Origin: Monocercomonoides exilis PA203
Taxonomy: Eukaryota > Protista > Preaxostyla
DNA: 64,000 nucleotides
Assembly (NCBI GenBank): GCA_001643675.2
Contig: LSRY02000022.1
Location: 744,001 to 808,000 of the forward strand
Reading direction: 5' to 3'
Position numbers and translations under genes: made by a program. Below the pieces are notes generated by a model. It saw nothing but the letters and a program-made list of their open reading frames with translations. It was not told where the DNA came from and did not search any database. Shown here piece by piece: positions 10,735 to 61,513 of this stretch; the first letter of the stretch is position 1; the number at the start of each line of letters is the position of its first letter.

Positions 10735-10762
10735 TTATTAACATATTTTAAAAAGTTACATA

Positions 10763-20659: not shown

Positions 20660-20699
20660 TCTTCAAGAACTTCTGATTGCCTTTGAGTTAGAAGACTTG

Positions 20700-27791: not shown

Positions 27792-27824
<33 letters not shown>

Positions 27825-33800: not shown

Positions 33801-34515
33801 TCCAAAGATATACGCCATCGACGTAATCACGCTGTTGATTGGCATGTTTTTACTTCTAAGCTCGCAGCGTTCCACACACGCAAGAATTGTATACAAGGCG
33901 TTATATATTTTTTGTCTAAATAATCAAGAAATCGATAAATTTTGTTTAACAAATATAATTATTCAACAAAATATTTTTTATAAAATGTTTATAAACATGC
34001 AAACGCATTGAAGGTGCATTTCAGGAATACTTTATTTAAATAAAATGATAATTGTCATACAAGATTTTTCCAAGAATTTGTCCTTCATATGCCGCCCACA
34101 ACTCAATAAAAAAATAAAACGAATCAAAATATATTAGCTCATCCTTTTCGCTTCCTGAAGTCAAACAGTTGAAAATCGATAATTTAATTTTATCATTAAA
34201 TTTACTGAAGTGGAATAAAGTAACAATGATATACAAACGCAAAAGCTCAAAAATGAAGTGAATATCTTCTTCTTTAATTGTTGGCAGAAAACGTTCGCAA
34301 AATTTCGTAAACCCTTGATACTTCATTCCATTGTTTGGTTTGCAATTCCTTAAAAACCATCTCAGTAAAATATATCTTCCCTCCGGAACATAAAATAAAT
34401 ATTTTAACTCAAATTCACTTTTCAATCCTTCCAGTTCCGAGCCAAACACCTCAAAATGAGACTGCCACCTTACTTCTTCCGTTTGTGTAATGTGCCGTTG
34501 CCGTGAACTAACAGC
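22418..34515 (-). CDS. Giant Ser/Glu/His-rich low-complexity protein (~3,800-aa last exon plus small upstream exons), left-arm copy with apparent homopolymer frameshifts
   Basis: ORFs 29121-33896 and 22418-29356 become one frame if four extra homopolymer bases at ~29160-29250 are removed, as in the mirror copy. An upstream globular exon region lies at ~34036-34515. The 5' end is not determined. Confidence 0.7.
32161..32349. repeat. (GAA)n/(GAT)n coding microsatellite (poly-Ser on the minus strand)
   Basis: Long GAA runs. The mirror copy at ~57079-57148 is 15 nt (5 codons) shorter. Confidence 0.9.
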
Positions 34516-35499
34516 GAGACTCTACTCGTCTCAATGAAATAAAACGCAAAAATTATAAATAAATTAATTAGTAAAGGGTTAATTTTTATTTCTTTTTTCT
34601 TTGGGCATTATGACTATAAAAGTCAATGCATTTAAATGGAGTGTTGCTCAGTTATAATAAAACTCAATAAACAGGAAATTTTATGTTTTTCAAAAACAAT
34701 TTATTATAATTGACATAATTTTGAATTATTAGATAAATTGTGAAATAAAAAAATATTTCAAAATGTTTTATTTATTTCAAGATTCCCCAGTAATTTTAAA
34801 TAAAAGGCAGTGTTTTTAAGAAAAACCAGTTTTTTTCAATTGTGACCTGAAAGTCTTGCATTTATCAAAAAAACATTTTTTACATGTCGAAGCCAAAAAT
34901 GCATCAACATTAAATATTATGTTATGTTTTTCATAAATAAAGCTTTTTTTTTGTGAGTTTTTTTAATTATTTTTATCATTTTCCTTCGAATGTGAAAATG
35001 AATCGTTTTCTAATAATAATGAATTTTAGCATGAAGATAAACGTTCAGCGAACATTTGCATCCATTTATATCAGAGTTTTGACTCATACCTGTTGAATTT
35101 CACTTTTTTGGCATTTTGAACTTTCTGTATTTTAGTGAAACAATGTAATAATCAAAAACAATTGGTTCACACTTAATCAACAAACAATATTTAACAATAT
35201 TATAGAAATATTTTTCTGTTTTTGAAATTTTCACATTGATTAATACTCACTTACGCAAATGATCAAATCATTTTCAAGGTTTCTCGACACATATGGATTG
35301 AAAACAAAAATGCAATTAAAACCGGTTTAAGAGCATTTATTTTTGTCAATTTTAATTATTTTCTACCTATTTTATTTTCTTTTTAAAAAGCTTTCTTGCA
35401 TAAAGTTTGAATAACTTTTTATCAGCACTTTCTGATTGACATCCATTGCTAAAATGCTGGAAAGAAACGACACAAATTAGATCACGAGAATGCAGTTGC

Positions 35500-36640
35500 T
35501 GTTGTGTATGATTTCTTGATGTTCGGATATTTTTTATTATTTTGAATAGATTTATTTTTCTGGTTTGTTAGATTGAAATGAAGAGAAAAGAAGTAGATAA
35601 TATTTGAAAAGAATTCAATGAACGATGAAATGAATAAAGAAGAATAGAAATCTATTATAGGATGAAATGTTCGATGTCCTTCATGAAATGAAAAGAAATA
35701 AGAAAAAGAAGGGAGAGCAAGTGAGTGATCCATGTCAATGCAATGTTTCTCTTAGTCGCAACTCTGCGCTGGATTCACTTGAATTACGTGTTTTGTACCA
35801 TCTGTTTAATGTTTTGAACAAAATGGAAAGCAAAGAAGAAAGAAAATTGAAATTATCTTGATGGAATTGAAAAATATTAGAAATACAGTGTGACAATTTT
35901 TCTTTCATTTTTGACATTTTCAAATATCATTCTCATTTTTTGATAAGGGATTTGAAAAAGATCAAACCCAGATAACATCAAAGAGATTTTCAAGAATAAT
36001 CAGGTACATTTCATCCTCACTCATCTTGCCTATCAATTGGCTTGGGTATTTTTATTTAGTTGATTTTTTGAAAAAAGGAGTTTGGAAGATGTCAACGTGA
36101 ATGAGTAGAGTTTTGAAAGAGAAGCAAAAAGAGAACTGGAATATCTGATGAAATGTGTGTATCGGAAGAGAGAAATAAAAAAGAGAGAAAAGCAAAAGTA
36201 TTGCTTGTGTTGGAAGATTGCTCCATCAATTTTTGATTTATTTCGATGTTGTTGATTGTGAAATGAAGCATTTACTGGGCTTATTGGAGATATTTCTCGT
36301 TTGAATCGAGCAAGGAAAGATAATTGTTGAGAAACATGTGATGAATGCATTGAAACATTAGGTATATCATTTCATCGCTCAGATGCGCAGATTGAGGATT
36401 CGCTGAAAAGTGGAGCAATTGATGCTAATTTGGAGGAAGTATTTGAATCCAGTGAGAGAGACATCATGATTGATGGTAACTCCCTTTCAAAGAAATATGA
36501 GAAAGATTGAAAGAAAAGACGGAAAATGAATAGAAGGAAGTGAAGCTGAAAGAGATACGATGAAATCTATATGAAGAGATAGAAGTAGAACTTTTCGAAG
36601 ATTTCATATATGGATTGTGTTATGTTTAGATAAGAGGAAA
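35500..36640 (+). pseudogene. Decayed member of an expanded helical hypothetical-protein family
   Basis: Broken frames with remnants such as EDSLKSGAIDANLEE and RLKEKT...EAE. From memory these resemble a large Monocercomonoides hypothetical family. Boundaries are approximate. Confidence 0.45.
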
Positions 36641-37399
36641 ATGAAATTAATATTTTTTTCAAAAATCATTGAGAATATGGGCGATTATTTTTGAAATCAT
36701 ATTTTTTCATTCTAAAATTTCAGTTCGAAAATTTCACTTGAATATCAACAAAAGAACACTGAAAAAGGAAAAAACTTATAAAAGAAATCATCATCTTTAT
36801 TTGAGAAAAAACACAAATTATTAACACAATCGTCATGAATTGTGCATTTGTTAACAAATTTATTTCCAAAAATCAACTATTTTGGAAAATAATCACCCCG
36901 AAAAAAGTTATGTTTTCAAAAATAACCACCCATATTTATTTGTTTTTTGCTTTTCAGATTTTATTGATATTTCATGCTTTTGTATTTTTGCTTTTCTCAT
37001 CCTTGAACAAAGCATTTGTTTATCTAAATTGTGAAGCGATCAATTTTTCTTTTATAATCAACGTAAAAAAAGGAAGAATCTAATTTGAAAAATACAAGTT
37101 TGTAATTGCTCTTGACTCAAATAATACACTTTTTTCTTCAATGTTGATTAATGAAAAGAAAAATTCGTTCATTTTGAACTTTTGAAAATAAGAAAAAATA
37201 CAACCATATATCAAGTTGAAAAAAATATTGCTCATAGAAGTTAATTTCTTTCTCCATCAAATCATCACAAAGAATTATAATTTTTGAAAAGTATAGTGGC
37301 ATTTTTTCCACATTGTTTTTGTATTCTTATCCAGATTTTAATTGCTGAATTCCTATGTAACATTTGAACTCGCGTTTATCGAATTTAATTTTCATGAAA

Positions 37400-38100
37400 T
37401 TCAAAAATCAACTGCTCGCTTGCAGGTTGTTTGCATTTTTTAATTCTGTTTAATTGTTATTGCAGCTTCCATTGTTCAACTTGCTGTCAATTTTTATCAT
37501 GTCCTTCGCAGTTAAAGCACTTTTCTTCTGTTAGTGGTAATATTGCCGTCGGGAAAGATCTTGCTAATTAGCTTCAATTAAACTTCGTATGTGTCATTCT
37601 TTGATGATCTGACTTCACACTGAACAGCACTTCTGCCGAAGAAGAAAATGATGAAGAAAATGCCACTGTTCCAATCAAACTTCTCTCTTTGTTTGTAACA
37701 ATAACAGAATTTTTTTTGTCCCAGTCGCAATAGTTGTTGTCGCACATACATGATTTCCATCCATCAATGTGGTTGTCAAGTTAATCTGTATCTCGCTCAT
37801 CTCAAAGGCTTTCGTCACTATTTTGCACGGATATGTTGTATTTGCCCCACAAAGCGGAAATGTATCATTTCCACTTCCTGAAATATAAATCGTCTTGTCT
37901 TTCAACCAATCCTTTTTAGATGTTTGATCAAACATCCAAGCACTGCATTTGCATAACTGAAGGATTAGAACATTCTCCTTTCATTTGCATTCGTATTGAA
38001 AAATTCATTGAACAAATTGATTGAAGACTCAAAAAGTTTATAGCTATCATTATGCAGCACTTCGTGAACATCTGGATTTATTGTTGTTCTGCATTTTAAT
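37400..38100 (-). pseudogene. Decayed fragment of an expanded surface/beta-helix-like protein family
   Basis: WLKDKTIYISGSGNDTFPLCGANTTYPCKIVTKAF...LMDGNH has the GxD..CG....PCxT-like motif. Flanking frames are broken. Confidence 0.55.
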
Positions 38101-39286
38101 TCGTAAAAGAACTTAAAATAACATTATAATCCATTGTTTGGAGCTTTTGCTTGAACTTGATAAAATAAAAGACTTTATCCTTCTATCAATGTTGAGCAAA
38201 AAATAAATTGAAAATTCTTCATTTTGAATTTTGTGGGAACGCATTCAACATATGTCTCTTCCACAGAATCTGTAAGCAAGAAATAACTGACTGAGCATTC
38301 AAACGCGCATGCTCATTATATTCATCAATTATCTGTTTGTTGAATCTCGATGTTTTAATCTGAACTTTCTCGGAAATATATCCATTTTTTGATAAAATGC
38401 TTTGAATGTTGACTTTAATACAATCAGGTGCATCTTATCTTCGAATAATTTTCTGTTTTCTTTTCCTTTTCTCGCTTCACAATCACATCTTCTTTCGACA
38501 AATTAAATTCTTCAAATTTTGCATGTCATAATCATCTATTCAAATTTTCGAAAACGACATGATATGAAATTTCAGAATTTAATGTCAGAACTTCTTATCT
38601 GTCGTCATTTTGTTCAGAATTGAAAAAAAAATTTTTTGATAAGATACCATAACTATCTGATCAAAGATAAAAACAACATTTTTCTATAATTTCAATGTGT
38701 AATTGTCTAATTATTGTTTTTTCTTAATATTCATTTTTTTTAATAAAAAGAAAACAATTTTTGAGAGAAAATTATTGGAAAATCTTGAGAATTCACAAAA
38801 AACTGTATTTTTATTGAAATTGCTGATTCAATTTTTACCAACAAATGATATTATTATCAAACAATCGTTATAAAAATAAATGCCTATGAATAATTTGATT
38901 TTTTAATTTCTAAATTACATTTAAAAACTCAATTTCGTCAAGACTCAAAAAAATGAATTTTTTAAAAATCTTTCCATTAAAAATGAAAAAATGCAATTCA
39001 GAACATGGTTGCAACCATTTTTCTATCAAAAATATTTCTATACAAGCTGAAACTTGAAATAACACAAACAATTTGAAATGATCAATTTATTTCTCATTTT
39101 ATCTATTATCTCATTTCCAAAAAGTTTGCGAAAAATATAAAAAGAAAAATAAATTTTCAAAAAAATCTCGAAAAATTGAAAAAGATTGAATCATTCACAA
39201 TAGAAAAAATGTTGGTATTCAATCAAAAAATTTTCATTTTAATATATGGAACTGATCAGTTCATTCTTTTTGATATATTTTTTATC

Positions 39287-40414
39287 ATGGAACAATCAAC
39301 ATTGCAAAACATTCTTTGTAATGTCGAAAAAAGAATTGCACTTCCCACGCATGTTGAAACTGTTTCCACATCAGTGAAAAAATTATTGATTGAAATATCA
39401 TTAGAATTTATTAAGGATCCTTTAAATGGATTTTTTCGTCTTACTGGATTTTCAAAAAATGAATTTGATATTCTTCTTTAACTTCTCGATCAAGAAATTA
39501 CTCCGCATCGAGGTAGAAAAAAATATATCAACACTTTCGAAGACCAACTTTTTATTTTATTGAATTTTCTTCATCTCGGATCGACTAAAATGACAAGTAA
39601 TATTACAAAACCATATTACAATTTTCATTCCGCAGTGATCCATTTATTACATGACATTTGTTGCTCGGTAAAACAACCACTTTTGGACTTGCTGTTATCT
39701 TTTAGAAATGATCTTGTGAGAGAAATTCAGGATGTGGGATTAATTGTCGATTGTACTATTCTACCAATAAACCGACCAAGTGGAAAAATAGAAGACGGAA
39801 TGAAGTTTTTCAGTGGAAAGCACCATACATATTGTGTTAAAGTGGAAGAAGGAGTCAATCCCAAACTTGGAATTGCCAGCACTATGCGATATTTTTCCTG
39901 GAAGCACACACGATTATGTTGTGTTTCAACATCATTATCCAATGTTTGAAAACAAATTAGGAAAAGCAAAACTGTTGGCAGACTCAGCTTTCATTGGAGC
40001 AAAAACATGGCTAGGTGCACACATTACGAAGCCGTGTGGAACGCCGGAGTTATCTAAGCACAGGGTGATCATTGAGCATTTTTTCGGAAGGTTAAAGACG
40101 GTCTTTGCTGTATTTCGACAGCATTTGCCATTAAGCATCGAAGTAGTTGGAGATTTTTTTATTGTTGCTGTTTGTTTAACAAATTTTCATATTTTACAGA
40201 ATCCTTTAACAGCCTCAGATTTAGAAGCCAATTATATTTTTTTGCTGAATTACAAATGGAATATGCAAGAAAGCAGAAAGCAAAGAAAGAAGCAAATCAG
40301 AAGTATTTGGAGAAACAAAGAAATAGATTGAATTCATCATCACCTACAACATCATGTTCTTCATTATTTCTTAATGACGATTTAGGCTTGTTTTTATTTT
40401 TTGACCCATATTGA
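39287..40414 (+). pseudogene. Harbinger/ISL2EU-type (DDE_Tnp_4) transposase pseudogene
   Basis: Motifs GFFRLTGFS, IVDCT, FSGKHHTYCVK, PGSTHD, LLADSAF and HRVIIEHFFGRLKTVF. Stop at 39479-39481 and frameshifts near 39880 and 40240. Confidence 0.85.
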
Positions 40415-40552
40415 TGTTTTATTCTTTGAAAAAACAACATTTTCATCAACAATATACCATTATTAATTAATTTTAGAAGTCTTAATGGAAAGCTGTAACC
40501 CATACTCAAGTGCAACGATAAGTGAAAAAGATCATGAAAAGAAAAAAAAAAG

Positions 40553-41032
40553 ATGAAGGTTTGTGAACGAGAAGAAAGAAATAGAGAAGAAAATGAAGAT
40601 CAAAGAAAAATTGAAAATGAAGTCAACGATCATGAAACCATAGACTACACATCTTCATGGCATCTTCCCTCCCAATGGAAATCTGCGTGTCTTCATAGAG
40701 TTTCATCATCAACTGATTTTCCAATTACATTTTGCTCATCACAATCTTCCTCGACACAACCTTCTTCAACTCAATTAGCAGCAACACAATCTTCTTCAAC
40801 TCAATTGTCTTCAACTTCACAATTGCATTCAAATTTGGTGTCTTCATCAATACCCTCGCAACTTCCTTCTCTGCCTCTACAAAACTTGTATTTTCCTTCA
40901 AATCTCACTCTTCCTTCTTCTTTTTGCATATTTCCCACTCGAAACAGCAGCTTTCAATCATCTTTGAATTTCACAGCTTCTTCAGGTTCAATTTCCACTC
41001 GAAGCAAAACTTCTTCATCTGAAAATTATTAA
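40553..41032 (+). CDS. Hypothetical Ser/Thr-rich ORF downstream of the transposase
   Basis: 159-aa ORF with short repeats (SSTQ) and no domain recognised. Confidence 0.3.
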   Translation: MKVCEREERNREENEDQRKIENEVNDHETIDYTSSWHLPSQWKSACLHRVSSSTDFPITFCSSQSSSTQPSSTQLAATQSSSTQLSSTSQLHSNLVSSSIPSQLPSLPLQNLYFPSNLTLPSSFCIFPTRNSSFQSSLNFTASSGSISTRSKTSSSENY

Positions 41033-41985
41033 ACTTCTATTTGAAATATGAAATCAGAAAGAAGCAAATTATTTTGATATTTTTGAATCGCAGATTTAGA
41101 TTTAAAGGGAGTTTTATTACTATTATTTATTCTTTTTGTTTTTGATACTATTATTTCCAAGTTGTTCATTATATGTTATTTGTTTTGCACATCACTCACA
41201 AATAAAACAAAAGCTGTTGCTAAAATTCTTTAAACATTCTTTTTTTTCATTTATCTTTCTATTTTGTGTGATTGAGATGAAAAACATTTCTAATTAACAA
41301 AACTTTGACAATATAAAAAGGATTTTTTAAATTATGTTAAAAATAAGACAAAAAAAGTTATTTAGTGAAATTTGATATGAGAGGTTAATAAAAAAAGAAA
41401 AATAGATCAGATTCATGTCAATGAAATTTTTTAATATTCCATCCTTACCTTGCTTTTGAACAAATTTAAAAAGTTTCAAGAATCGAATCAAACATACAGA
41501 AACAATAAAATACTAAAAGAAACATTTTAATACTGAACAAACAAACCTTCTATTTCATATTTTTTTATAGTTTTATTTTGTTTGTAATCATTAATTCTTC
41601 AATTAAAAAAACAGCGATCACCAAAGCTTTGATCATAAAAATGCATTTAATGGCAGAAAAAAGAAAAGTTTATTTCAAAAAAGATTGAGCCATTCGCGAT
41701 AAGAAAAAAACATTCACATAAGAATAAACAATTCGCAAAAGAAAAACACATTCGAATATAGGTCTAATCTGTAATAATTTAGAAATACATATTTTCTGCC
41801 AATGGTAATTTTTCGATGTTGGTGTAAACGTGTGTTACAGATAAAAAAAATATAAATAATAAAAAATAAAAATCTGTCACTTCCGTCAGTAATTGAAAAT
41901 CCACGTCTGTGTTAGTTTTTTAAATAAATATTAATTTTTACTGATTTTGGGGGATTTCGTTATATAAATCAATTTTCATTCATAT

Positions 41986-42253
41986 GGGGCAAAATATTTA
42001 ACTTCAGGCATTTTCATTGAAAAATTTTGCATTTTTGATTTAAATTTTGTGAATAGAAATTATCAACAAAATGGGATCATTTTAATTCAAATGGATGAGG
42101 TTACAAAACATAATGTTGCAATGTCAATTGCGTTAGTATTCGGATCAGAAAATCCAATTTACTCGAAAATCTGAGTTCGTTTTGTGAAGTTCTGAGTGAA
42201 ATAAAAATTTAATGCTTCGTGCAAAAAAAGCTTTAAATCTTGTATTTTCCCCC
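41986..42253. mobile_element. Possible small MITE with GGGG termini and AT flanks
   Basis: AT|GGGGCAAAATA...TATTTTCCCCC|AT. The mirror copy is at 47073-47340. Confidence 0.3.
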
Positions 42254-42853
42254 ATATATTCATTTTTTTTTATTCTTCAAACTTCACTTCATTTCATAAA
42301 TGAAATTAAAATTTCTTCCCTTCCGGATACTGCTACCATTGACAGTCACTGACTTCACTGATGGTCCGATGATCAAAAAATTCCAAGTTTGACTTTTTTT
42401 CAATATCCTTTTTAAAAAACGTATTTTTATTCTTCGCTTATATTAATTAATATTAAATAGAGATATAGTATATCAGTTATAGATCCATCTTGATTAAGAT
42501 CAATCAATATTATCTATTTATGTATGTCTGATGGTAGTTGTCATTTTGTATAATAAGTTAGAATAAGCAGTGTGGAGAGATAGATGATCGATACTTATTG
42601 CTAATAGAATTATCGATGACTATGAAGGCAGTGTTGTTCGATAAAGATGGGGTAATTGATTGGTGTATTCGATATGTATCTATAGCTGATATATCATATC
42701 TCCAGGAAGGATATTTGCTAAAAGATTAACTGAAAGATTAACCGGAGTGTCGAAGATGGTGAAATTAGTGTGAAAATTAGTGTGATCGTTTGTGAAATCG
42801 CTTGTGAAATCGTCAAATATAAATAATTGATTAAGTTTTTTGTTTTATAGTAA

Positions 42854-43066
42854 ATGGGTCGGAAGAAGATATACGCAACTGTGGAAGAAGCGAAAGCGGC
42901 TCAACAAAAACAAATTAAACAGTTTCAGGAAAAACGTAAGGAAGAAACTAAGTATTACAACGAACATGTATCTGAGAAACAGAAGAAGTTGATTAAGATA
43001 TTGAGGAGAAAGCTTATTGAAAGTGATGAGTCGTTAGATGAGTTGATGGAAAATGTTAATGGTTAA
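42854..43066 (+). CDS. 70-aa basic, helical hypothetical protein (MGRKKIYATVEEAK...)
   Basis: Clean ATG-TAA ORF with a T-rich upstream region and TAAATG context. The mirror copy keeps the ORF despite substitutions. Confidence 0.6.
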   Translation: MGRKKIYATVEEAKAAQQKQIKQFQEKRKEETKYYNEHVSEKQKKLIKILRRKLIESDESLDELMENVNG

Positions 43067-43403
43067 GGTGAATGAGTTTATTTTTGGTTGGAAGAGTTAA
43101 TTGTTTTGCCTGGACCGGGTTGATAGTCCAGGCAATGTGAGTGATGCTGTGGCACGGATATATTATGTTAAATCTCCGTGCAGGAGAGTGGACAGGTGGA
43201 AAGGACTGGACAGGATAAATTAAATTCTCCAAAATATGTGGGCAAACGGGCAAACTGAGCAAAGTGGGCAGAATACATTTAATGTGAAAATTAACTGTTC
43301 CCCGTCAAAGTTCGACATTAACCCCCACGTCATCTTCCTCGTAAATGTTCGTTTCAAAAATAAATCTGTTTCATAAAAATTTTGATTTTTTAATTTTTAT
43401 AAA

Positions 43404-45694
43404 ATGACAAACCCCCAAACAGACACTGACAACGTAATCCAACAACTAATCGATTCAATTTCAACAGAACAGCAAACGCTGGGAGAACGAATGAAATATC
43501 ACATCGTTGACTTGTTCGAATACAAGAAATACTCTGACAAGAAGCAGGACCAACGACACACTGGAACAGCTGTCGATATCAGCAAATGTGAGGATCTTTA
43601 TGTTGTTGATGTTGACATTAACAAATCCCTTCAACCTGAACAAACGAAAACCATCAGAAATTCCATTCTCGACAAACTCTCACGAAATGTCGGACTTGTA
43701 CAAACAGCTCATGGTGGTCTTCACATTTCCTGTGAGCTGTGTGGTTATCCCCTCAAATGTTCTTTACAAACCAAAGTGTTCACGAGTCCAGAGTACGATA
43801 TCTTCATTTTTGCGGGCATTGGAGATCAAAAACAGAGACTTGTTGTTCAAGCTGACTTTTCATACCGAGAGATGAAAGATGGCAAGAGAATCATCACCAA
43901 ATATATTCTCCTCAACAATTACAGAGAGCTCACAGATCTTTCTCCACTCGAGAGTGTTCTTGACGTATTCGGTATTGACCTCAAAACAGAGAATACATCA
44001 GCGACAATGGCAGCTGAACTACACAATCTTCTCACACAAGATGGAATCGCTGATATGTCTTCAACTGTCGCTCTTGCTCTTGTTGATGGACTCAAAGATG
44101 TTGAAATGCACAACACAGGTTCTTTGTCACTTGATTCTGAGTTAACTCTTTTATCGTTATTTGCAGCTCTCAACTCTCTCGTCAACATTAACGGTTTCGA
44201 CAACCAATCAATAGATTTTCTTTTCAATCAAATCAAAGATACAGCTGCTCTAACAGCAAATGCAATCACTCACTACGAAGAGAAACGAAATAGATACAGA
44301 GATCACAAGTCACATCCATTTGTTCTACAAAAGATTGTCAAAAGATGGAATCCAACATATTACAACGATGTGATCATTCCACTCCTCAGAAAAGAGAATG
44401 AGCAAAAGGAAGAACCTCCACGAGAGATTACAGTTCATGAAATTGATCTCAACTCATCGTTCTCGTTTTCTGAAATCAGGGATAAAGCTTGTCGAAGTCA
44501 ATACTCCTCACTATCTGAAGTCGCTGAAGATCTCACAAAAGTTCTAAGGTTTGTCGAAGCAAGGATGGAATTCATTGTGAAAGAGTTTGACATTCACTCC
44601 TCTTGTTATTCAATAATATTCAAGATAAAATCAGCAACGTACGAACTGTTCAAAACAATAAAACTCTGGCATGATGATAAAAAGACTCTCACAGTTGAGA
44701 CAGCTTTCGAACAATACTCTCATGTTCTATCGATCGATGGGGTGAAGTTCTTCTCAGATAACCTTCGAATATTCTCTCTGTTCCATGGGTTCAAATACTA
44801 AATGGCAAACGAGCAAAATGACGAAATCATCAAACCATTCCTCGATTTCACACGAGAAGCAATTGCCAACGAAAACGAAGAACTCTATCAACACACCCCC
44901 TGTTGGAATGCGTCAATTATTCAAAATCCTGGTAAAAAAGCAGAAACATCACTTGTTCTCAAAGGTTTGCAAGGTATTGGAAAGAATGTCTGGACAAATG
45001 TTCTTGCTGAACTGTTGGCAGGATATTCATGTCCAAATGTCACAAAGATTGCAGAACTAACAGGACAGTTCAACTCCATCGTTGAAGAGAAAATGCTCAT
45101 TTTCTTAACGAATTGAAAAATATTGGAGATGATCGAACAGCTAACTTTGACGCATTGAAGAGTATTATCACAGATTCAACAATCAGAATCAATGAGAAGA
45201 ATCAGCCAAGAAGAACAGTTGAAAATGTAGCTAATTTCATATTTGTGACAAATCACACATACCCGGTAAAGATTGAGATTGGTGACGGAAGATATGTTGT
45301 TTGTGATTGTAACTCAAAATATAAGAACAATCTCACATTCTTCAAAGAATTCACAAACACTTTCGACAATGAATTCCATGAACAACTTTTTTATTATTTC
45401 ATCAGCAAAGATCTCACCAATTTTAACACAAGGGCTATTCCAACAACGGATGCAAGGGAAGATATCATTGCAGTATCACTCTCTGTCATCGATGTGTTCT
45501 GACAGGAGCATTTCAATAAACTCAAAGAAGGGTGGAGATTCTCTGAAGCACTATGTTTCAGACCAGTTGAATACAAGAACGATCGCTCATTCCAACTGGC
45601 ATTTAAAGACAGATGTGAGAGAAAACAAATGTGTGGAAGTCGAAATCAAGTGTTTTGTTATAAACTCAAGCAAGAGTATGAACAACTCCTCTAA
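43404..45694 (+). pseudogene. Virus/plasmid-type primase-polymerase fused to a D5-like SF3 helicase (disrupted)
   Basis: Prim-Pol motifs LYVVDVDI and VQTAHGGLHI. Walker A LKGLQGIGKN, then GQFNS, Walker B LIFL(N)E, LKSIITD...INEKNQP and motif C FIFVTN. Lesions are TAA at 44799, a -1 frameshift at ~45108, TGA at 45500 and TAA at 45692. No introns. Confidence 0.85.
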
Positions 45695-46259
45695 CGACGT
45701 GAAGATGAAGATGACATCGATTGTTCTGCGGAAATTAACAAAACACATTCGATTTATTGGAATCATAAATACACAAAGGATACAAAAGTGTGTGCCACCT
45801 GTTATATACCACCAACGATTCCATATGGCAATGTGGCAAAATGACAACACTGTCGAAATTAAATAAAAACACTCAAAAACATAGTAAATAAGGTGGAAAA
45901 TGCCCATGTTGGCAGAAATGGCATGTTGGCAGCTCTTTTCAGATGAAATTGAAAGATCCTGACTACCTGACTACCGGACTACGCTTCCAGCACGGAGATT
46001 TTTGTCAATATTTCCCTTCATCCAGCATCTTGACATTGCAACAATTCGCTATCCGGTCAACCGATTTACACTTTTCCCAAGTGAAAATATAGATGTTTGC
46101 AATCCATCATAATGCCATAGTAGTTACCGTTTGATACAATCTACGATACAACGAACGTGTGGAGTCTGTAATGTTTCATCAATTTGCACATTTCCTGACC
46201 AGCTAAACCAGTGCAGGTGTGACAGTTAACTCATTCAACCAATACTAATCACATTCAAC

Positions 46260-46472
46260 TTACCCATTAACTTTTTCCATCAACTCATCTAACAACTCAT
46301 CACTTTCAATAAGCTTTCTCCTCAATATCTTAATCAACTTCTTCTGTTTCTCAGATACATGTTCGTTGTAATACTTAGTTTCTTCCTTACGTTTTTCCTG
46401 AAACTGTTTAATTTGTTTTTGTTGAGCCGCTTTCGCTTCTTCCACAGTTGCGTATATCTTCTTCCGACCCAT
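46260..46472 (-). CDS. Mirror copy of the 70-aa basic ORF (2 aa differences)
   Basis: ...SDELLDELMEKVNG versus ...SDESLDELMENVNG in the left copy. Confidence 0.6.
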   Translation of the reverse strand: MGRKKIYATVEEAKAAQQKQIKQFQEKRKEETKYYNEHVSEKQKKLIKILRRKLIESDELLDELMEKVNG

Positions 46473-48290
46473 TTACTATAAAACAAAAAACTTAATCAAT
46501 TATTTATATTTGACGATTTCACAAGCGATTTCACAAACGATCACACTAATTTTCACACTAATTTCACCATCTTCGACACTCCGGTTAATCTTTCAGTTAA
46601 TCTTTTAGCAAATATCCTTCCTGGAGATATGATATATCAGCTATAGATACATATCGAATACACCAATCAATTACCCCATCTTTATCGAACAACACTGCCT
46701 TCATAGTCATCGATAATTCTATTAGCAATAAGTATCGATCATCTATCTCTCCACACTGCTTATTCTAACTTATTATACAAAATGACAACTACCATCAGAC
46801 ATACATAAATAGATAATATTGATTGATCTTAATCAAGATGGATCTATAACTGATATACTATATCTCTATTTAATATTAATTAATATAAGCGAAGAATAAA
46901 AATACGTTTTTTAAAAAGGATATTGAAAAAAAGTCAAACTTGGAATTTTTTGATCATCGGACCATCAGTGAAGTCAGTGACTGTCAATGGTAGCAGTATC
47001 CGGAAGGGAAGAAATTTTAATTTCATTTATGAAATGAAGTGAAGTTTGAAGAATAAAAAAAAATGAATATATGGGGGAAAATACAAGATTTAAAGCTTTT
47101 TTTGCACGAAGCATTAAATTTTTATTTCACTCAGAACTTCACAAAACGAACTCAGATTTTCGAGTAAATTGGATTTTCTGATCCGAATACTAACGCAATT
47201 GACATTGCAACATTATGTTTTGTAACCTCATCCATTTGAATTAAAATGATCCCATTTTGTTGATAATTTCTATTCACAAAATTTAAATCAAAAATGCAAA
47301 ATTTTTCAATGAAAATGCCTGAAGTTAAATATTTTGCCCCATATGAATGAAAATTGATTTATATAACGAAATCCCCCAAAATCAGTAAAAATTAATATTT
47401 ATTTAAAAAACTAACACAGACGTGGATTTTCAATTACTGACGGAAGTGACAGATTTTTATTTTTTATTATTTATATTTTTTTATCTGTAACACACGTTTA
47501 CACCAACATCGAAAAATTACCATTGGCAGAAAATATGTATTTCTAAATTATTACAGATTAGACCTATATTCGAATGTGTTTTTCTTTTGCGAATTGTTTA
47601 TTCTTATGTGAATGTTTTTTTCTTATCGCGAATGGCTCAATCTTTTTGAAATAAACTTTTCTTTTTTCTGCCATTAAATGCATTTTTATGATCAAAGCTT
47701 TGGTGATCGCTGTTTTTTAATTGAAGAATTAATGATTACAAACAAAATAAAACTATAAAAAAATATGAAATAGAAGGTTTGTTTGTTCAGTATTAAAATG
47801 TTTCTTTTAGTATTTTATTGTTTCTGTATGTTTGATTCGATTCTTGAAACTTTTTAAATTTGTTCAAAAGCAAGGTAAGGATGGAATATTAAAAAATTTC
47901 ATTGACATGAATCTGATCTATTTTTCTTTTTTTATTAACCTCTCATATCAAATTTCACTAAATAACTTTTTTTGTCTTATTTTTAACATAATTTAAAAAA
48001 TCCTTTTTATATTGTCAAAGTTTTGTTAATTAGAAATGTTTTTCATCTCAATCACACAAAATAGAAAGATAAATGAAAAAAAAGAATGTTTAAAGAATTT
48101 TAGCAACAGCTTTTGTTTTATTTGTGAGTGATGTGCAAAACAAATAACATATAATGAACAACTTGGAAATAATAGTATCAAAAACAAAAAGAATAAATAA
48201 TAGTAATAAAACTCCCTTTAAATCTAAATCTGCGATTCAAAAATATCAAAATAATTTGCTTCTTTCTGATTTCATATTTCAAATAGAAGT

Positions 48291-48800
48291 TTAATAATTT
48301 TCAGATGAAGAAGTTTTGCTTCGAGTGGAAATTGAACCTGAAGAAGCTGTGAAATTCAAAGATGATTGAAAGCTGCTGTTTCGAGTGGGAAATATGCAAA
48401 AAGAAGAAGGAAGAGTGAGATTTGAAGGAAAATACAAGTTTTGTAGAGGCAGAGAAGGAAGTTGCGAGGGTATTGATGAAGACACCAAATTTGAATGCAA
48501 TTGTGAAGTTGAAGACAATTGAGTTGAAGAAGATTGTGTTGCTGCTAATTGAGTTGAAGAAGGTTGTGTCGAGGAAGATTGTGATGAGCAAAATGTAATT
48601 GGAAAATCAGTTGATGATGAAACTCTATGAAGACACGCAGATTTCCATTGGGAGGGAAGATGCCATGAAGATGTGTAGTCTATGGTTTCATGATCGTTGA
48701 CTTCATTTTCAATTTTTCTTTGATCTTCATTTTCTTCTCTATTTCTTTCTTCTCGTTCACAAACCTTCATCTTTTTTTTTCTTTTCATGATCTTTTTCAC
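48291..48800 (-). CDS. Mirror copy of the Ser/Thr-rich hypothetical ORF
   Basis: Reverse complement of 40553-41032. Confidence 0.3.
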   Translation of the reverse strand: MKKIMKRKKKMKVCEREERNREENEDQRKIENEVNDHETIDYTSSWHLPSQWKSACLHRVSSSTDFPITFCSSQSSSTQPSSTQLAATQSSSTQLSSTSQLHSNLVSSSIPSQLPSLPLQNLYFPSNLTLPSSFCIFPTRNSSFQSSLNFTASSGSISTRSKTSSSENY

Positions 48801-48907
48801 TTATCGTTGCACTTGAGTATGGGTTACAGCTTTCCATTAAGACTTCTAAAATTAATTAATAATGGTATATTGTTGATGAAAATGTTGTTTTTTCAAAGAA
48901 TAAAACA

Positions 48908-50035
48908 TCAATATGGGTCAAAAAATAAAAACAAGCCTAAATCGTCATTAAGAAATAATGAAGAACATGATGTTGTAGGTGATGATGAATTCAATCTATT
49001 TCTTTGTTTCTCCAAATACTTCTGATTTGCTTCTTTCTTTGCTTTCTGCTTTCTTGCATATTCCATTTGTAATTCAGCAAAAAAATATAATTGGCTTCTA
49101 AATCTGAGGCTGTTAAAGGATTCTGTAAAATATGAAAATTTGTTAAACAAACAGCAACAATAAAAAAATCTCCAACTACTTCGATGCTTAATGGCAAATG
49201 CTGTCGAAATACAGCAAAGACCGTCTTTAACCTTCCGAAAAAATGCTCAATGATCACCCTGTGCTTAGATAACTCCGGCGTTCCACACGGCTTCGTAATG
49301 TGTGCACCTAGCCATGTTTTTGCTCCAATGAAAGCTGAGTCTGCCAACAGTTTTGCTTTTCCTAATTTGTTTTCAAACATTGGATAATGATGTTGAAACA
49401 CAACATAATCGTGTGTGCTTCCAGGAAAAATATCGCATAGTGCTGGCAATTCCAAGTTTGGGATTGACTCCTTCTTCCACTTTAACACAATATGTATGGT
49501 GCTTTCCACTGAAAAACTTCATTCCGTCTTCTATTTTTCCACTTGGTCGGTTTATTGGTAGAATAGTACAATCGACAATTAATCCCACATCCTGAATTTC
49601 TCTCACAAGATCATTTCTAAAAGATAACAGCAAGTCCAAAAGTGGTTGTTTTACCGAGCAACAAATGTCATGTAATAAATGGATCACTGCGGAATGAAAA
49701 TTGTAATATGGTTTTGTAATATTACTTGTCATTTTAGTCGATCCGAGATGAAGAAAATTCAATAAAATAAAAAGTTGGTCTTCGAAAGTGTTGATATATT
49801 TTTTTCTACCTCGATGCGGAGTAATTTCTTGATCGAGAAGTTAAAGAAGAATATCAAATTCATTTTTTGAAAATCCAGTAAGACGAAAAAATCCATTTAA
49901 AGGATCCTTAATAAATTCTAATGATATTTCAATCAATAATTTTTTCACTGATGTGGAAACAGTTTCAACATGCGTGGGAAGTGCAATTCTTTTTTCGACA
50001 TTACAAAGAATGTTTTGCAATGTTGATTGTTCCAT
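48908..50035 (-). pseudogene. Mirror copy of the Harbinger/ISL2EU-type transposase pseudogene
   Basis: ORF fragments identical to 39287-40414, with the same lesions. Confidence 0.85.
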
Positions 50036-51220
50036 GATAAAAAATATATCAAAAAGAATGAACTGATCAGTTCCATATATTAAAATGAAAATTTTTTGAT
50101 TGAATACCAACATTTTTTCTATTGTGAATGATTCAATCTTTTTCAATTTTTCGAGATTTTTTTGAAAATTTATTTTTCTTTTTATATTTTTCGCAAACTT
50201 TTTGGAAATGAGATAATAGATAAAATGAGAAATAAATTGATCATTTCAAATTGTTTGTGTTATTTCAAGTTTCAGCTTGTATAGAAATATTTTTGATAGA
50301 AAAATGGTTGCAACCATGTTCTGAATTGCATTTTTTCATTTTTAATGGAAAGATTTTTAAAAAATTCATTTTTTTGAGTCTTGACGAAATTGAGTTTTTA
50401 AATGTAATTTAGAAATTAAAAAATCAAATTATTCATAGGCATTTATTTTTATAACGATTGTTTGATAATAATATCATTTGTTGGTAAAAATTGAATCAGC
50501 AATTTCAATAAAAATACAGTTTTTGTGAATTCTCAAGATTTTCCAATAATTTTCTCTCAAAAATTGTTTTCTTTTTATTAAAAAAAATGAATATTAAGAA
50601 AAAACAATAATTAGACAATTACACATTGAAATTATAGAAAAATGTTGTTTTTATCTTTGATCAGATAGTTATGGTATCTTATCAAAAAATTTTTTTTTCA
50701 ATTCTGAACAAAATGACGACAGATAAGAAGTTCTGACATTAAATTCTGAAATTTCATATCATGTCGTTTTCGAAAATTTGAATAGATGATTATGACATGC
50801 AAAATTTGAAGAATTTAATTTGTCGAAAGAAGATGTGATTGTGAAGCGAGAAAAGGAAAAGAAAACAGAAAATTATTCGAAGATAAGATGCACCTGATTG
50901 TATTAAAGTCAACATTCAAAGCATTTTATCAAAAAATGGATATATTTCCGAGAAAGTTCAGATTAAAACATCGAGATTCAACAAACAGATAATTGATGAA
51001 TATAATGAGCATGCGCGTTTGAATGCTCAGTCAGTTATTTCTTGCTTACAGATTCTGTGGAAGAGACATATGTTGAATGCGTTCCCACAAAATTCAAAAT
51101 GAAGAATTTTCAATTTATTTTTTGCTCAACATTGATAGAAGGATAAAGTCTTTTATTTTATCAAGTTCAAGCAAAAGCTCCAAACAATGGATTATAATGT
51201 TATTTTAAGTTCTTTTACGA

Positions 51221-51921
51221 ATTAAAATGCAGAACAACAATAAATCCAGATGTTCACGAAGTGCTGCATAATGATAGCTATAAACTTTTTGAGTCTTCAA
51301 TCAATTTGTTCAATGAATTTTTCAATACGAATGCAAATGAAAGGAGAATGTTCTAATCCTTCAGTTATGCAAATGCAGTGCTTGGATGTTTGATCAAACA
51401 TCTAAAAAGGATTGGTTGAAAGACAAGACGATTTATATTTCAGGAAGTGGAAATGATACATTTCCGCTTTGTGGGGCAAATACAACATATCCGTGCAAAA
51501 TAGTGACGAAAGCCTTTGAGATGAGCGAGATACAGATTAACTTGACAACCACATTGATGGATGGAAATCATGTATGTGCGACAACAACTATTGCGACTGG
51601 GACAAAAAAAATTCTGTTATTGTTACAAACAAAGAGAGAAGTTTGATTGGAACAGTGGCATTTTCTTCATCATTTTCTTCTTCGGCAGAAGTGCTGTTCA
51701 GTGTGAAGTCAGATCATCAAAGAATGACACATACGAAGTTTAATTGAAGCTAATTAGCAAGATCTTTCCCGACGGCAATATTACCACTAACAGAAGAAAA
51801 GTGCTTTAACTGCGAAGGACATGATAAAAATTGACAGCAAGTTGAACAATGGAAGCTGCAATAACAATTAAACAGAATTAAAAAATGCAAACAACCTGCA
51901 AGCGAGCAGTTGATTTTTGAA
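51221..51921 (+). pseudogene. Mirror copy of the surface-protein family fragment
   Basis: ORF 51386-51646 is identical to 37675-37935. Confidence 0.55.
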
Positions 51922-52682
51922 TTTCATGAAAATTAAATTCGATAAACGCGAGTTCAAATGTTACATAGGAATTCAGCAATTAAAATCTGGATAAGAATAC
52001 AAAAACAATGTGGAAAAAATGCCACTATACTTTTCAAAAATTATAATTCTTTGTGATGATTTGATGGAGAAAGAAATTAACTTCTATGAGCAATATTTTT
52101 TTCAACTTGATATATGGTTGTATTTTTTCTTATTTTCAAAAGTTCAAAATGAACGAATTTTTCTTTTCATTAATCAACATTGAAGAAAAAAGTGTATTAT
52201 TTGAGTCAAGAGCAATTACAAACTTGTATTTTTTCAAATTAGATTCTTCCTTTTTTTTACGTTGATTATAAAAGAAAAATTGATCGCTTCACAATTTAGA
52301 TAAACAAATGCTTTGTTCAAGGATGAGAAAAGCAAAAATACAAAAGCATGAAATATCAATAAAATCTGAAAAGCAAAAAACAAATAAATATGGGTGGTTA
52401 TTTTTGAAAACATAACTTTTTTCGGGGTGATTATTTTCCAAAATAGTTGATTTTTGGAAATAAATTTGTTAACAAATGCACAATTCATGACGATTGTGTT
52501 AATAATTTGTGTTTTTTCTCAAATAAAGATGATGATTTCTTTTATAAGTTTTTTCCTTTTTCAGTGTTCTTTTGTTGATATTCAAGTGAAATTTTCGAAC
52601 TGAAATTTTAGAATGAAAAAATATGATTTCAAAAATAATCGCCCATATTCTCAATGATTTTTGAAAAAAATATTAATTTCAT

Positions 52683-53823
52683 TTTCCTCTTATCTAAACA
52701 TAACACAATCCATATATGAAATCTTCGAAAAGTTCTACTTCTATCTCTTCATATAGATTTCATCGTATCTCTTTCAGCTTCACTTCCTTCTATTCATTTT
52801 CCGTCTTTTCTTTCAATCTTTCTCATATTTCTTTGAAAGGGAGTTACCATCAATCATGATGTCTCTCTCACTGGATTCAAATACTTCCTCCAAATTAGCA
52901 TCAATTGCTCCACTTTTCAGCGAATCCTCAATCTGCGCATCTGAGCGATGAAATGATATACCTAATGTTTCAATGCATTCATCACATGTTTCTCAACAAT
53001 TATCTTTCCTTGCTCGATTCAAACGAGAAATATCTCCAATAAGCCCAGTAAATGCTTCATTTCACAATCAACAACATCGAAATAAATCAAAAATTGATGG
53101 AGCAATCTTCCAACACAAGCAATACTTTTGCTTTTCTCTCTTTTTTATTTCTCTCTTCCGATACACACATTTCATCAGATATTCCAGTTCTCTTTTTGCT
53201 TCTCTTTCAAAACTCTACTCATTCACGTTGACATCTTCCAAACTCCTTTTTTCAAAAAATCAACTAAATAAAAATACCCAAGCCAATTGATAGGCAAGAT
53301 GAGTGAGGATGAAATGTACCTGATTATTCTTGAAAATCTCTTTGATGTTATCTGGGTTTGATCTTTTTCAAATCCCTTATCAAAAAATGAGAATGATATT
53401 TGAAAATGTCAAAAATGAAAGAAAAATTGTCACACTGTATTTCTAATATTTTTCAATTCCATCAAGATAATTTCAATTTTCTTTCTTCTTTGCTTTCCAT
53501 TTTGTTCAAAACATTAAACAGATGGTACAAAACACGTAATTCAAGTGAATCCAGCGCAGAGTTGCGACTAAGAGAAACATTGCATTGACATGGATCACTC
53601 ACTTGCTCTCCCTTCTTTTTCTTATTTCTTTTCATTTCATGAAGGACATCGAACATTTCATCCTATAATAGATTTCTATTCTTCTTTATTCATTTCATCG
53701 TTCATTGAATTCTTTTCAAATATTATCTACTTCTTTTCTCTTCATTTCAATCTAACAAACCAGAAAAATAAATCTATTCAAAATAATAAAAAATATCCGA
53801 ACATCAAGAAATCATACACAACA
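52683..53823 (-). pseudogene. Mirror copy of the decayed hypothetical-family gene
   Basis: Reverse complement of ~35500-36640. Confidence 0.45.
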
Positions 53824-54808
53824 GCAACTGCATTCTCGTGATCTAATTTGTGTCGTTTCTTTCCAGCATTTTAGCAATGGATGTCAATCAGAAAGTGCTG
53901 ATAAAAAGTTATTCAAACTTTATGCAAGAAAGCTTTTTAAAAGAAAATAAAATAGGTAGAAAATAATTAAAATTGACAAAAATAAATGCTCTTAAACCGG
54001 TTTTAATTGCATTTTTGTTTTCAATCCATATGTGTCGAGAAACCTTGAAAATGATTTGATCATTTGCGTAAGTGAGTATTAATCAATGTGAAAATTTCAA
54101 AAACAGAAAAATATTTCTATAATATTGTTAAATATTGTTTGTTGATTAAGTGTGAACCAATTGTTTTTGATTATTACATTGTTTCACTAAAATACAGAAA
54201 GTTCAAAATGCCAAAAAAGTGAAATTCAACAGGTATGAGTCAAAACTCTGATATAAATGGATGCAAATGTTCGCTGAACGTTTATCTTCATGCTAAAATT
54301 CATTATTATTAGAAAACGATTCATTTTCACATTCGAAGGAAAATGATAAAAATAATTAAAAAAACTCACAAAAAAAAAGCTTTATTTATGAAAAACATAA
54401 CATAATATTTAATGTTGATGCATTTTTGGCTTCGACATGTAAAAAATGTTTTTTTGATAAATGCAAGACTTTCAGGTCACAATTGAAAAAAACTGGTTTT
54501 TCTTAAAAACACTGCCTTTTATTTAAAATTACTGGGGAATCTTGAAATAAATAAAACATTTTGAAATATTTTTTTATTTCACAATTTATCTAATAATTCA
54601 AAATTATGTCAATTATAATAAATTGTTTTTTGAAAAACATAAAATTTCCTGTTTATTGAGTTTTATTATAACTGAGCAACACTCCATTTAAATGCATTGA
54701 CTTTTATAGTCATAATGCCCAAAGAAAAAAAGAAATAAAAATTAACCCTTTACTAATTAATTTATTTATAATTTTTGCGTTTTATTTCATTGAGACGAGT
54801 AGAGTCTC

Positions 54809-57800
54809 GCTGTTAGTTCACGGCAACGGCACATTACACAAACGGAAGAAGTAAGGTGGCAGTCTCATTTTGAGGTGTTTGGCTCGGAACTGGAAGGATT
54901 GAAAAGTGAATTTGAGTTAAAATATTTATTTTATGTTCCGGAGGGAAGATATATTTTACTGAGATGGTTTTTAAGGAATTGCAAACCAAACAATGGAATG
55001 AAGTATCAAGGGTTTACGAAATTTTGCGAACGTTTTCTGCCAACAATTAAAGAAGAAGATATTCACTTCATTTTTGAGCTTTTGCGTTTGTATATCATTG
55101 TTACTTTATTCCACTTCAGTAAATTTAATGATAAAATTAAATTATCGATTTTCAACTGTTTGACTTCAGGAAGCGAAAAGGATGAGCTAATATATTTTGA
55201 TTCGTTTTATTTTTTTATTGAGTTGTGGGCGGCATATGAAGGACAAATCCTTGGAAAAATCTTGTATGACAATTATCATTTTATTTAAATAAAGTATTCC
55301 TGAAATGCACCTTCAATGCGTTTGCATGTTTATAAACATTTTATAAAAAATATTTTGTTGAATAATTATATTTGTTAAACAAAATTTATCGATTTCTTGA
55401 TTATTTAGACAAAAAATATATAACGCCTTGTATACAATTCTTGCGTGTGTGGAACGCTGCGAGCTTAGAAGTAAAAACATGCCAATCAACAGCGTGATTA
55501 CGTCGATGGCGTATATCTTTGGAGGGGTTACATGGGAAGGGATATCGGAAGAAGAGGTGGAAAAACTGCATGAACGTACAGAGAAGATGTTGAAGGAGGC
55601 CCAAGACTATCGAAAAATTACTCCATGTATTGATAGTACAGTAAGTGAGCTTGTTTCCGAAAAAAAACAGGAACTTAGAAGAAATGAGGAGTTCAAGAGC
55701 ACTTTGGATGATGATCGCGAGAATCTGGTTGGAAAATTGGTACGTGTTCTGAAGCAGCTGCTCCTGTGGTCAGACAAAGCTTACGAGGCCGCCACAAGCG
55801 AGGCAAAACGCTGTAGCAACTGTCGGCTTATTCCTGCTGAACATCCAGTTCCAGATTCATGCTACGTTGCATGCAGCATGCCTGGCATGGCAGACGATCA
55901 GTTCAAGCTTCGGAGCATAGGACCGGCAAGCAGTTTGCGTCTGACACCTTCTTTTGTGCTGTCATCGCCGCGTCTTGTGCCTTCGCTGGTAATATCACAC
56001 GAGCCGAACTTACATCTATCGGCTCGCTCTTCTGCTTCCTCGTGCAATGCACAGTCTATCTCTGCCTCAATTCCTTTTTCTTCTTCCTCCTCTTCTTCCT
56101 CTGGACAGACTTCTCTTCCTTCTTCAGCCTCGTCGAACAATTCTTCGACTCCTCGCAGCTCTTGCCAGGTTCCCTCTGCATCTCCGCTTACTCTTCTGCA
56201 TCCTCTTTCTCCTCCTGCACAGACACTGTTTTCTCTGCATTCATCGCTTTCCTCGCAGTATACCCCCACCGCTCTGTCGCCTGTGTCAAACCGCTCGATC
56301 CTTTCCCCGTTTCTTACGCCTTCTGCTGAGGCAGGATCTGTCAGGAGACAATCGCTTTCAACGACACTCACTTCTCCTGTCATGTCACCTGTTCCTCTGC
56401 TGCCGCTGATGGGGAGCCCAGGCTCATTCTCTTCAGTTTCTTTCTCATCATCATCATCATCATCTTCTTCTTCTTCTTTACCTTCTTCTTCTTCTTCTAC
56501 TACTACTTCTTCTTCTTCAGCTGCCATACCTCTCGTTCCCTTGTCTTTTGCAGCTGCTCCGAGCTTATCTGAGCATTCAACCACTTTGCACGGATTTGAT
56601 TCCTCAAAGATGCAACAGATTTCTGGAGGCGATGATGGAGTGAGCTGCAATTGCGTATGCTCCTATTGCGAAGATGCGACATGTGCTCTGTTTGTGCTTA
56701 TGGTAGTAGAATGCTTGACACCTTGCTGTGAGCACCCTCAACTGTCAGCATCAATTGTGCAATTGTTTTCTTCTTCAACTTCTTCAATTCCATCTATTCC
56801 TTCGTGTAAATCCTCTGCCCGTAACAATGTCTTCCACTCACATCGCGACTGTGCACATCTTCTGCATCATTCCCATATCCACGCACACTCCCACAGCCAT
56901 TCACATTCGCATTTACACACTCACAACCACTCAGGTTCATCCAAACATTTGAATTATATATATTCTCCGACTTTTTCATCATCATCATCATCATCTTCTT
57001 CTTCTTCTTCTTCTTCTTCTTCTTCCTTCTCCTCCTCCTCTTCTGCTTCTTCTAATTTAACTTATTCTTCCCCTTCTCATTCTTCTTCTTCTTCTTCTTC
57101 TTCTTCTTCTTCTTCTTCTTCTTCTTCTTCTACTTCTACTTCTACTTCTTTAGCTTCCAAGCATTCTCTGGCTTCCTCCACATCAACATCCACAGCAGCA
57201 TCCAGCAATGCTGCCAACATTAACACGAACACGACTTCTGTTACCAACACATCCACCACCCTCACCTCGATCACAGCTGCATGTTCAGACGATTCCTCGT
57301 TGGAATCGACGCTTCCGGGGTCTGCCAAGTGCAGGATCGGGAGGTGCAAGGCGGAGGAAGAGCAGTCTGCAGTTGTGCTGCATGAGCGCGATGCGCAAAG
57401 TGGCGGGGCATCTGGGCCTGTGGAGTCGTACAGCGTGGCACAGATTTCGATCCCGCGGTTGGAGTCTCTACAGCAGACTGTGACACATTCGCTGAATACT
57501 CTGAGACAGGACGAGCAGAAGGCAACGACTGCAACGATTCCGATGCCAATTTCGATACCAATGGCGATGGAGACGACGATGGAGGCGACGATGCCTGATC
57601 AGGAGTGTGGGAACAAGCTGGACGAGGGAGCAAGAGAATGTGAAAGAGAAGAGGAAGACGAAAAGGATGATGAGGCTGTCAATGAGGTTGTTGATGATGG
57701 AAGGGAAGAATGCGATGAGGAAGGAAAGGAGATGGATCATGAAGAAGGTGATGGAATCTTGCTTTCTCCCTTTGCCTTCTCCTCCTCCTCATCATCATCT

Positions 57801-61480: not shown

Positions 61481-61513
<33 letters not shown>

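Follow-up and report, generated by a model that had tools for sequence, protein, structure and literature searches.

A decayed primase-helicase gene between inverted ends within a large palindrome of Monocercomonoides exilis

Whether a replication gene can spread through a eukaryotic genome with little besides its own ends is the question raised by a locus in the protist Monocercomonoides exilis PA203. The window, that is the whole stretch of 64,000 nucleotides that was analysed, comes from contig LSRY02000022.1 (positions 744,001 to 808,000 of the forward strand) and all coordinates are counted from its first base. A preliminary description of the DNA had proposed at 42430-46896 a minimal self-replicating element, in which a primase-helicase gene lies between terminal inverted repeats (TIRs) that each hold a small open reading frame (ORF). 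The locus contains a decayed gene of this kind between old, diverged inverted ends, the whole is set in a palindrome that runs far beyond those ends, and the gene has many relatives in M. exilis. The reading favoured here, with odds judged slightly better than even, is that of an integrated copy, now dead, of what is likely a mobile element of ~4.5 kb with multiple copies, its ends likely having seeded a mirror duplication of at least 17.8 kb of host DNA. Such an element, without capsid or integrase, is likely derived from Polinton-like viruses and may have originated as a reduced replication module of the Polinton-like viruses of oxymonads.

The inverted ends and the palindrome

The features of the locus are the following, AEP standing for archaeo-eukaryotic primase, Prim-Pol for primase-polymerase and SF3 for superfamily 3.

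43404-~45830 (+): predicted primase-helicase pseudogene, intronless; AEP Prim-Pol, helical domain and SF3 (NrS-1/DUF5906-type) helicase
42854-43066 (+): 70-aa ORF, left copy, Lys/Glu-rich
46260-46472 (-): 70-aa ORF, right copy; original right-end sequence kept only in the last ~12 codons
42435-43270 (+): left inverted end, ~0.84 kb, its outer limit somewhere at ~42435-42470
43032-43270 (+): left inverted end, inner part, old and diverged; arm identity steps from 100% to ~80% at 43032
45901-46294 (-): right inverted end, inner part, likewise old, carrying a 157-bp extra segment at 46030-46186
25305-43031 (+): left palindrome arm, host DNA plus the left end of the element; its limit is set by the right arm leaving the window
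46295-64000 (-): right palindrome arm, mirror of the left arm
42427-42741: sub-terminal imperfect inverted repeat (42427-42521 against 42741-42641)
42759-42813: two short 12-bp tandem duplications (Tandem Repeats Finder)

The element stands out from its surroundings in composition. Runs of at least five A or T make up 15% of the bases at 41033-42434 and ~2.5% of those inside 42435-46891, while the fraction of G and C (GC) rises from 0.25 outside to 0.34-0.37 inside the element. Within 42435-46891 no further long ORF was found beyond the Prim-Pol gene and the two 70-aa ORFs; an ORF and Pfam check of the same interval detected neither a family-B DNA polymerase of the protein-primed kind nor a retroviral-type integrase, and for major or minor capsid proteins and a packaging ATPase there was neither such an ORF nor coding room. 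The two 70-aa ORFs differ from each other at two residues and encode a basic protein (isoelectric point 9.4, net charge +4), the only homolog of which was MONOS_17995 at 90% identity in a search with two candidates. No Pfam family scored above cut-off for this protein and no Atlas match reached 0.9, the best score being 0.86; that it binds DNA is a guess. On these points the preliminary description was accurate, having claimed an intronless primase-helicase gene, two convergent copies of a basic 70-aa ORF, a loss of poly-A/T character inward from ~42430 and the lack of transposase, integrase, family-B polymerase, capsid and packaging genes, and its left boundary at ~42430 agrees with short-read contig data.

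At 42413-42434 the contigs of a different flank repeat break off, and from ~42460-42503 the depth of the element family climbs, so that the end is ~0.8 kb long. One exact contig covers 42989-43253. The two ends match each other at 86 of 106 bases between 43033-43139 and 46293-46187, and further inward at 86 of 123 bases between 43143-43270 and 46029-45901 (score 55, against a best of 42 in 500 shuffles). Inward of 43032 the identity of the arms thus declines from 100% to 81% and then to 70%. This graded remnant, which is well above shuffled sequence, makes the inverted ends older than the palindrome, and judged from the alignment it could not stem from a fresh duplication or an artefact. The unique core that is left between the ends (43271-45900) is barely larger than the gene.

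Within the left end the arms of the sub-terminal repeat match at 70 of 92 bases (score 60, maximum of 500 shuffles 39). Both arms are depth peaks and, of the upstream parts, the best conserved in other copies; the repeat is a candidate origin or protein-binding site. The stretch of tandem duplications at 42759-42813 is missing or replaced in other copies (joints of 42661, 42704 and 42763 to 42814) and another copy bypasses 45949-46128 in four of four runs. A perfect 14-bp A/T palindrome (42440-42453) lies exactly at the outer boundary of the element; it could be a chance occurrence in AT-rich DNA or the remnant of a hairpin or resolution site. Searches of Rfam gave no match, and bacterial-type promoters were not in excess.

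The inverted repeat does not stop at the element. In a blastn comparison 25305-43139 mirrored 64000-46187 with 99.7% identity over 17,840 columns, at which point the repeat leaves the window, and a difference map of 25305-43031 found only homopolymer or microsatellite indels and two substitutions between the arms. The arms hold a very long host gene, a DDE transposase and repeats resembling miniature inverted-repeat transposable elements (MITEs), and the inverted repeat spans at least 17.8 kb of host DNA beyond 42430 and 46896. The right terminus at 46896 is the mirror of the left one, so a target-site duplication is unreadable, and the right arm probably overwrote the original right terminus of the element and its flank. 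The likely exchange point, to judge from the drop in arm identity, is 43032. The near-perfect right TIR with its end at 46896 is therefore a product of host-scale inverted duplication and no independent terminus. The proposed order of TIR with small ORF, Prim-Pol/helicase and TIR with small ORF stands as a two-ended layout, supported by the old diverged repeat and by the contig joints of other copies (below), but not as one confined to 4.5 kb.

The inverted duplication itself is very probably real. In the short-read run X1 the exact contigs in the arm (42265-42840) had depths of 65, 81, 96 and 73, those in the core 34 and 35, an arm to core ratio of 2.3, and one of the arm contigs crosses the boundary between flank and element. 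For the long-read assembly of M. exilis genomic DNA was sheared and prepared with a ligation kit; in the parts of the source drawn on here, amplification is mentioned for cDNA only (PMC8767320).

The primase-helicase gene and its relatives

The protein is predicted, from models and profiles, to be an AEP Prim-Pol of the pRN1/NrS-1 type joined to an SF3 helicase. Fold comparison was based on a domain model of residues 26-332 (predicted local distance difference test score, pLDDT, 81.5; 36 sequences), a full-length model with pLDDT 41 having been set aside. Model residues 1-170 matched the fold of pRN1 ORF904 (Z 9.1-9.5, root-mean-square deviation 3.5, 147 aligned) and that of NrS-1 (Z 7.7-7.9); PrimPol of African swine fever virus was matched only at Z 3-4. 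Fold matches among viral models were led by the primase-polymerases of Bodo saltans virus (E 8e-7; three of the top six). The helicase part matched the NrS-1 helicase with E 8e-23, and P0023, an 804-aa annotated copy from M. exilis, matched DUF5906 with 77 bits against a cut-off of 27.6 and also VapE. Among the families listed at E <= 0.5 for P0023, P0014 and P0015 none was a Pfam family specific for poxvirus D5, a result that does not speak against kinship. Residues D69, D71, H107 and D134 (P0023 numbering), which we take to be the acidic and histidine catalytic motifs, are invariant or at least 90% conserved among 28 family members and are present in P0023. The earlier label of Prim-Pol/D5 was thus right as to an AEP Prim-Pol with an SF3 helicase; D5 as stated is not supported, the helicase matching the NrS-1/DUF5906 type.

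The copy in the window has decayed. Its identity to P0023 is 89% over residues 1-569 and 78% over residues 569-802; it has stops at 44799, 45500 and 45692, a frameshift near 45101-45107 and the replacements of D134 by F and R630 by G, at two positions that are nearly or fully invariant among the 28 family members. The letters of the window at 44799 and 45502 are backed by short-read contigs (X1 depth ~80 and 65), so two of the three stops are not assembly errors. An alternative code with TAA and TAG read as glutamine clears two stops and was rejected in favour of decay, since the TGA and the frameshift remain and other copies have sense codons there. As read from its frame the gene is a pseudogene and this copy could not replicate itself, so the claim of a self-replicating element fails for the copy at hand.

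The family is large, with intact metagenomic members of 751-802 aa at 43-46% identity. Of the members listed for two metagenomic clusters, 29 of 30 lay on contigs of <=5.2 kb, as did 12 of the 16 from ten others, which is a weak hint only, since metagenomic contigs are short anyway; members on longer contigs were found overall at 9.6-17.8 kb. In a tree from which named Polinton proteins and those of nucleocytoplasmic large DNA viruses were left out, the M. exilis copies grouped with P0048 and long branches blurred the deeper order. No relative was confirmed in prokaryotic genomes, and eight metagenome loci and 12 plasmid records had a helicase-only match of 23-32%. One of these loci, L001, is a 2.9-kb metagenomic contig with little besides a gene for 841 aa (57-2582), the SF3 helicase of which is 32% identical to the family. 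Among four of the eight loci that were scanned, L001 showed an inverted motif close to each end, which was discarded as support because it looks like a promoter motif, its right arm abutting an ATG. The cluster of P0081 and the protein P0086 are close full-length relatives on contigs of 9.6-11.6 kb and the most promising candidates for a viral parent of larger size.

Other copies, competing explanations and mechanism

In the protein search 15 of the 20 matches listed were from M. exilis, at 69-96% identity. At least 19 annotated pieces were found on at least 13 M. exilis contigs (P0002 and P0023 counted once) and nearly all of these are fragments. The summed depth over the gene was ~2,800, compared with ~35 for single-copy contigs, and the ~80 copies that this would give are a loose upper bound, since summed depth is not a copy number. 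Joints between contigs were evaluated for 15 of 43 joints. All five opposite-strand joints linked 43102-43292 to 45789-46264, two connected left-end sequence to the start of the gene (43105-43387, 43299-43401) and two the end of the gene to right-end sequence (45815-46266, 45948-46129); the other six involved a local repeat, the flank or the outer end. Joints of this kind are to be expected from two-ended copies whose inner boundary shifts, and the family seems to be characterised by an arrangement of inverted end, Prim-Pol/SF3 gene and inverted end. On the evidence of such joints, end sequence lies on both sides of the gene in other copies as well. No description of the element family or its layout was found in the published literature, a scope that excluded most subscription journals and Repbase-type libraries.

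A number of observations must be set against this reading. The low-depth runs were mixed, with arm depths of 5.2 and 6.2 against a core of 5.5 in X2 and an arm of 3.9-7.4 against a core of 2.9 in X3, and all four short-read runs represent one single sample. No exact contig across the right junction was present among those listed, and the exact left contig is unbroken at 43032, where a fork would be expected. The contig joints come from short contigs, at 85% likeness and with sides of 24-75 bases, and describe pieces rather than whole copies. Folding of the sub-terminal repeat gave z -1.7, 12 of 200 shuffles folding equally well. Depth over the small-ORF region, at 15,000-32,000, exceeds that over the gene 5-10 times, and the region is not exclusive to the layout; this excess suggests either many gene-less derivatives or other elements that share the region. 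Four of the 16 further relatives lie on contigs of 9.6-11.6 kb, which points to larger viral contexts. The relative P0045 from Streblomastix was predicted as one ORF that combines the Prim-Pol with what we take to be family-B polymerase motifs, the join possibly being an artefact of the gene model; it suggests a Polinton-type origin.

The last two points belong equally to the best of the competing explanations, a deletion remnant of a full Polinton-like virus or Polinton, in which a replication gene would lie between viral ends and would never have moved or been copied on its own. Some relatives occur on 10-18-kb contigs, the annotated M. exilis copies are nearly all fragments, and primase-helicases are described as common in such endogenous viruses (PMC10120064). 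The number of major capsid genes reported is six for M. exilis and 820 for Streblomastix strix (PMC10120064), counts from which divergent capsid genes may be missing. Even so this explanation is an unlikely one: in several independent copies the gene is joined directly to end sequence on both sides, the copies outnumber the reported capsid genes, and pattern scans of IMG/VR viral contigs, which are insensitive, confirmed no relative.

More doubtful still is a composite, formed when two copies of an abundant ~0.8-kb small-ORF element captured the Prim-Pol gene and came to move it by means of a transposase acting in trans. It would account for the depth of the small-ORF region, for the internal inverted repeat that the end possesses and for inner ends that are only 70-81% alike, a divergence beyond expectation if replication had homogenised them. 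The outer end motifs (42482-42547 and 42658-42701), however, peak at 2,600-5,200, which is ~1-2 times the depth of the gene and not 10 times; the internal inverted repeat does not enclose the small ORF, which makes the end unlike a self-contained MITE, and the inner boundary differs among copies.

That there is no two-ended element at all, only one small-ORF repeat beside the gene with a symmetry lent by host duplication or long-read fold-back misassembly, would suit arms that are almost identical and include unrelated host genes, as well as the right junction missing from the exact contigs listed, but is quite improbable in view of the diverged repeat inside the arms, the same two-sided layout in other copies and the greater depth of the arm contigs in X1.

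If the favoured reading of a dead copy of a mobile element is right, the enzyme of an intact copy would be loaded onto the sub-terminal inverted repeat and would then unwind the element, prime its synthesis and copy it, by analogy with pRN1 ORF904 and the NrS-1 polymerase acting on their own replicons. Insertion without an integrase of its own could occur during repair of host breaks, or else resident Polinton-like viruses or DDE transposons could lend an integrase. The palindrome might have begun with a break to the right of the element followed by resection, after which the right end would anneal to the left end in the same strand, synthesis from near 43031 would copy the left end and the host flank outward, and replication would fix the product of arm, core and arm. 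Recombination between the two ends on sister chromatids could yield the same product. In yeast, spaced and diverged inverted repeats have been described to fold back and give inverted duplications of 24-100 kb; repeats 1.5 kb apart suffice, and only divergence >25% is reported to suppress duplication (PMC10164571).

A further-reaching proposal, to be regarded as tentative and on the unlikely side, is that the element represents an undescribed eukaryotic class of self-synthesizing replicon of ~4.5-5 kb with an AEP Prim-Pol/SF3 protein as its sole enzyme and neither transposase, integrase, protein-primed polymerase nor capsid, which would occupy dozens of sites in Monocercomonoides, have hundreds of non-autonomous small-ORF derivatives, be intact in metagenomic hosts (clusters of 110 and 35 sequences) and, by way of its inverted ends, drive the formation of large chromosomal palindromes.

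Neighbouring repeats and known systems

The surroundings of the element are rich in other repeats. A very long Ser-rich ORF, doubled by the palindrome, lies at 22418-33923 (-) and 55401-63998 (+) and is open over at least 2,866 aa in the right arm; homopolymer indels at 29159-29239, probably sequencing errors, displace the frame of the left copy. Both arms hold a broken DDE_Tnp_4 transposase (39248-40331; mirror 48991-50075), 49% identical to a copy at 19-657 and presumably Harbinger/ISL2EU-like. It was considered as a part of the element and excluded, lying 2 kb outside the boundary and having that relative at 19-657.

A MITE-like repeat at 41981-42259 (mirror 47067-47345) has 15-bp inverted ends matching at 14 of 15 positions; its left end has a summed X1 depth of 28,500 with heterogeneous flanks, and a paralogous site without the repeat was detected (joint 41974-42276). 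The second MITE-like family, represented at 36674-36936 and 8903-9152, has 37-bp inverted ends and a similar starting motif, its copies being 68% alike. Two adjacent elements at 9217-10739 and 10760-12968 have inverted arms of 466 bp at 99.6% and 482 bp at 99.8% and may be of foldback type; the larger spacer of the pair holds no long ORF in six frames. Further sequences of this kind are a DDE_1 transposase at 4833-6382 and a broken retroelement at 17973-21360 with an RVT_1 match at 19754-20662, downstream of which is an ORF that by eye we take to be tyrosine recombinase-like, and the whole to be DIRS-like.

To our knowledge the known eukaryotic DNA elements with a replicase of their own also carry an integrase or a capsid, or need a giant virus. 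Long TIRs are a feature of Polintons/Mavericks that is present here in the ~0.8-kb ends, and the target-site duplication of that group is, we assume, 6 bp. The proteins pRN1 ORF904 and NrS-1 have the same Prim-Pol fold and an NrS-1-type SF3 helicase, but are those of prokaryotic replicons, whereas the present one belongs to a eukaryotic nuclear repeat. Polintons and Polinton-like viruses with a primase-helicase, among them a metamonad group, share with it inverted ends, intronless genes and that replicase; Polinton-type insertions are generally described as 15-30 kb in length with capsid and integrase, in contrast to ~4.5 kb with neither (PMC10120064). Transpovirons as described are, like the present element, small, capsid-less, integrable, provided with inverted ends and thought to be reduced from Polinton-like viruses, but have a superfamily 1 helicase fused to an inactivated protein-primed polymerase and are associated with mimivirus particles (PMC5499653). 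The present element, with its AEP Prim-Pol and SF3 helicase, differs from transpovirons in its helicase, and no helper virus is known for it.

The closest idea in print is that of the stand-alone AEP or AEP-SF3 replicases of Polisuviricotina (bioRxiv 10.64898/2026.10.13.758929). That preprint proposes that AEP replicases lacking genes for integration may be mobile alone, and offers few examples (10.64898/2026.10.13.758929). The AEP copies of Bodo saltans virus are described in it as without flanking repeats, whereas the present element has ~0.8-kb inverted ends and a small ORF, and is multi-copy and nuclear (10.64898/2026.10.13.758929). The fold-back duplications of yeast resemble the palindrome in their near-identical long arms, unique spacer and older inverted repeat at the junction; the system described was engineered with Alu repeats, whereas here the element is a natural one and the outer duplication ends beyond the window (PMC10164571).

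If the favoured reading is true, a multi-copy family with inverted ends in a culturable protist, together with the full-length annotated copy MONOS_12125, would make the proposal of a lone mobile replicase directly testable. The locus would also provide a natural case in which the diverged ends of an element appear to have seeded a large palindrome of host DNA, with an exchange point that is readable to the base.

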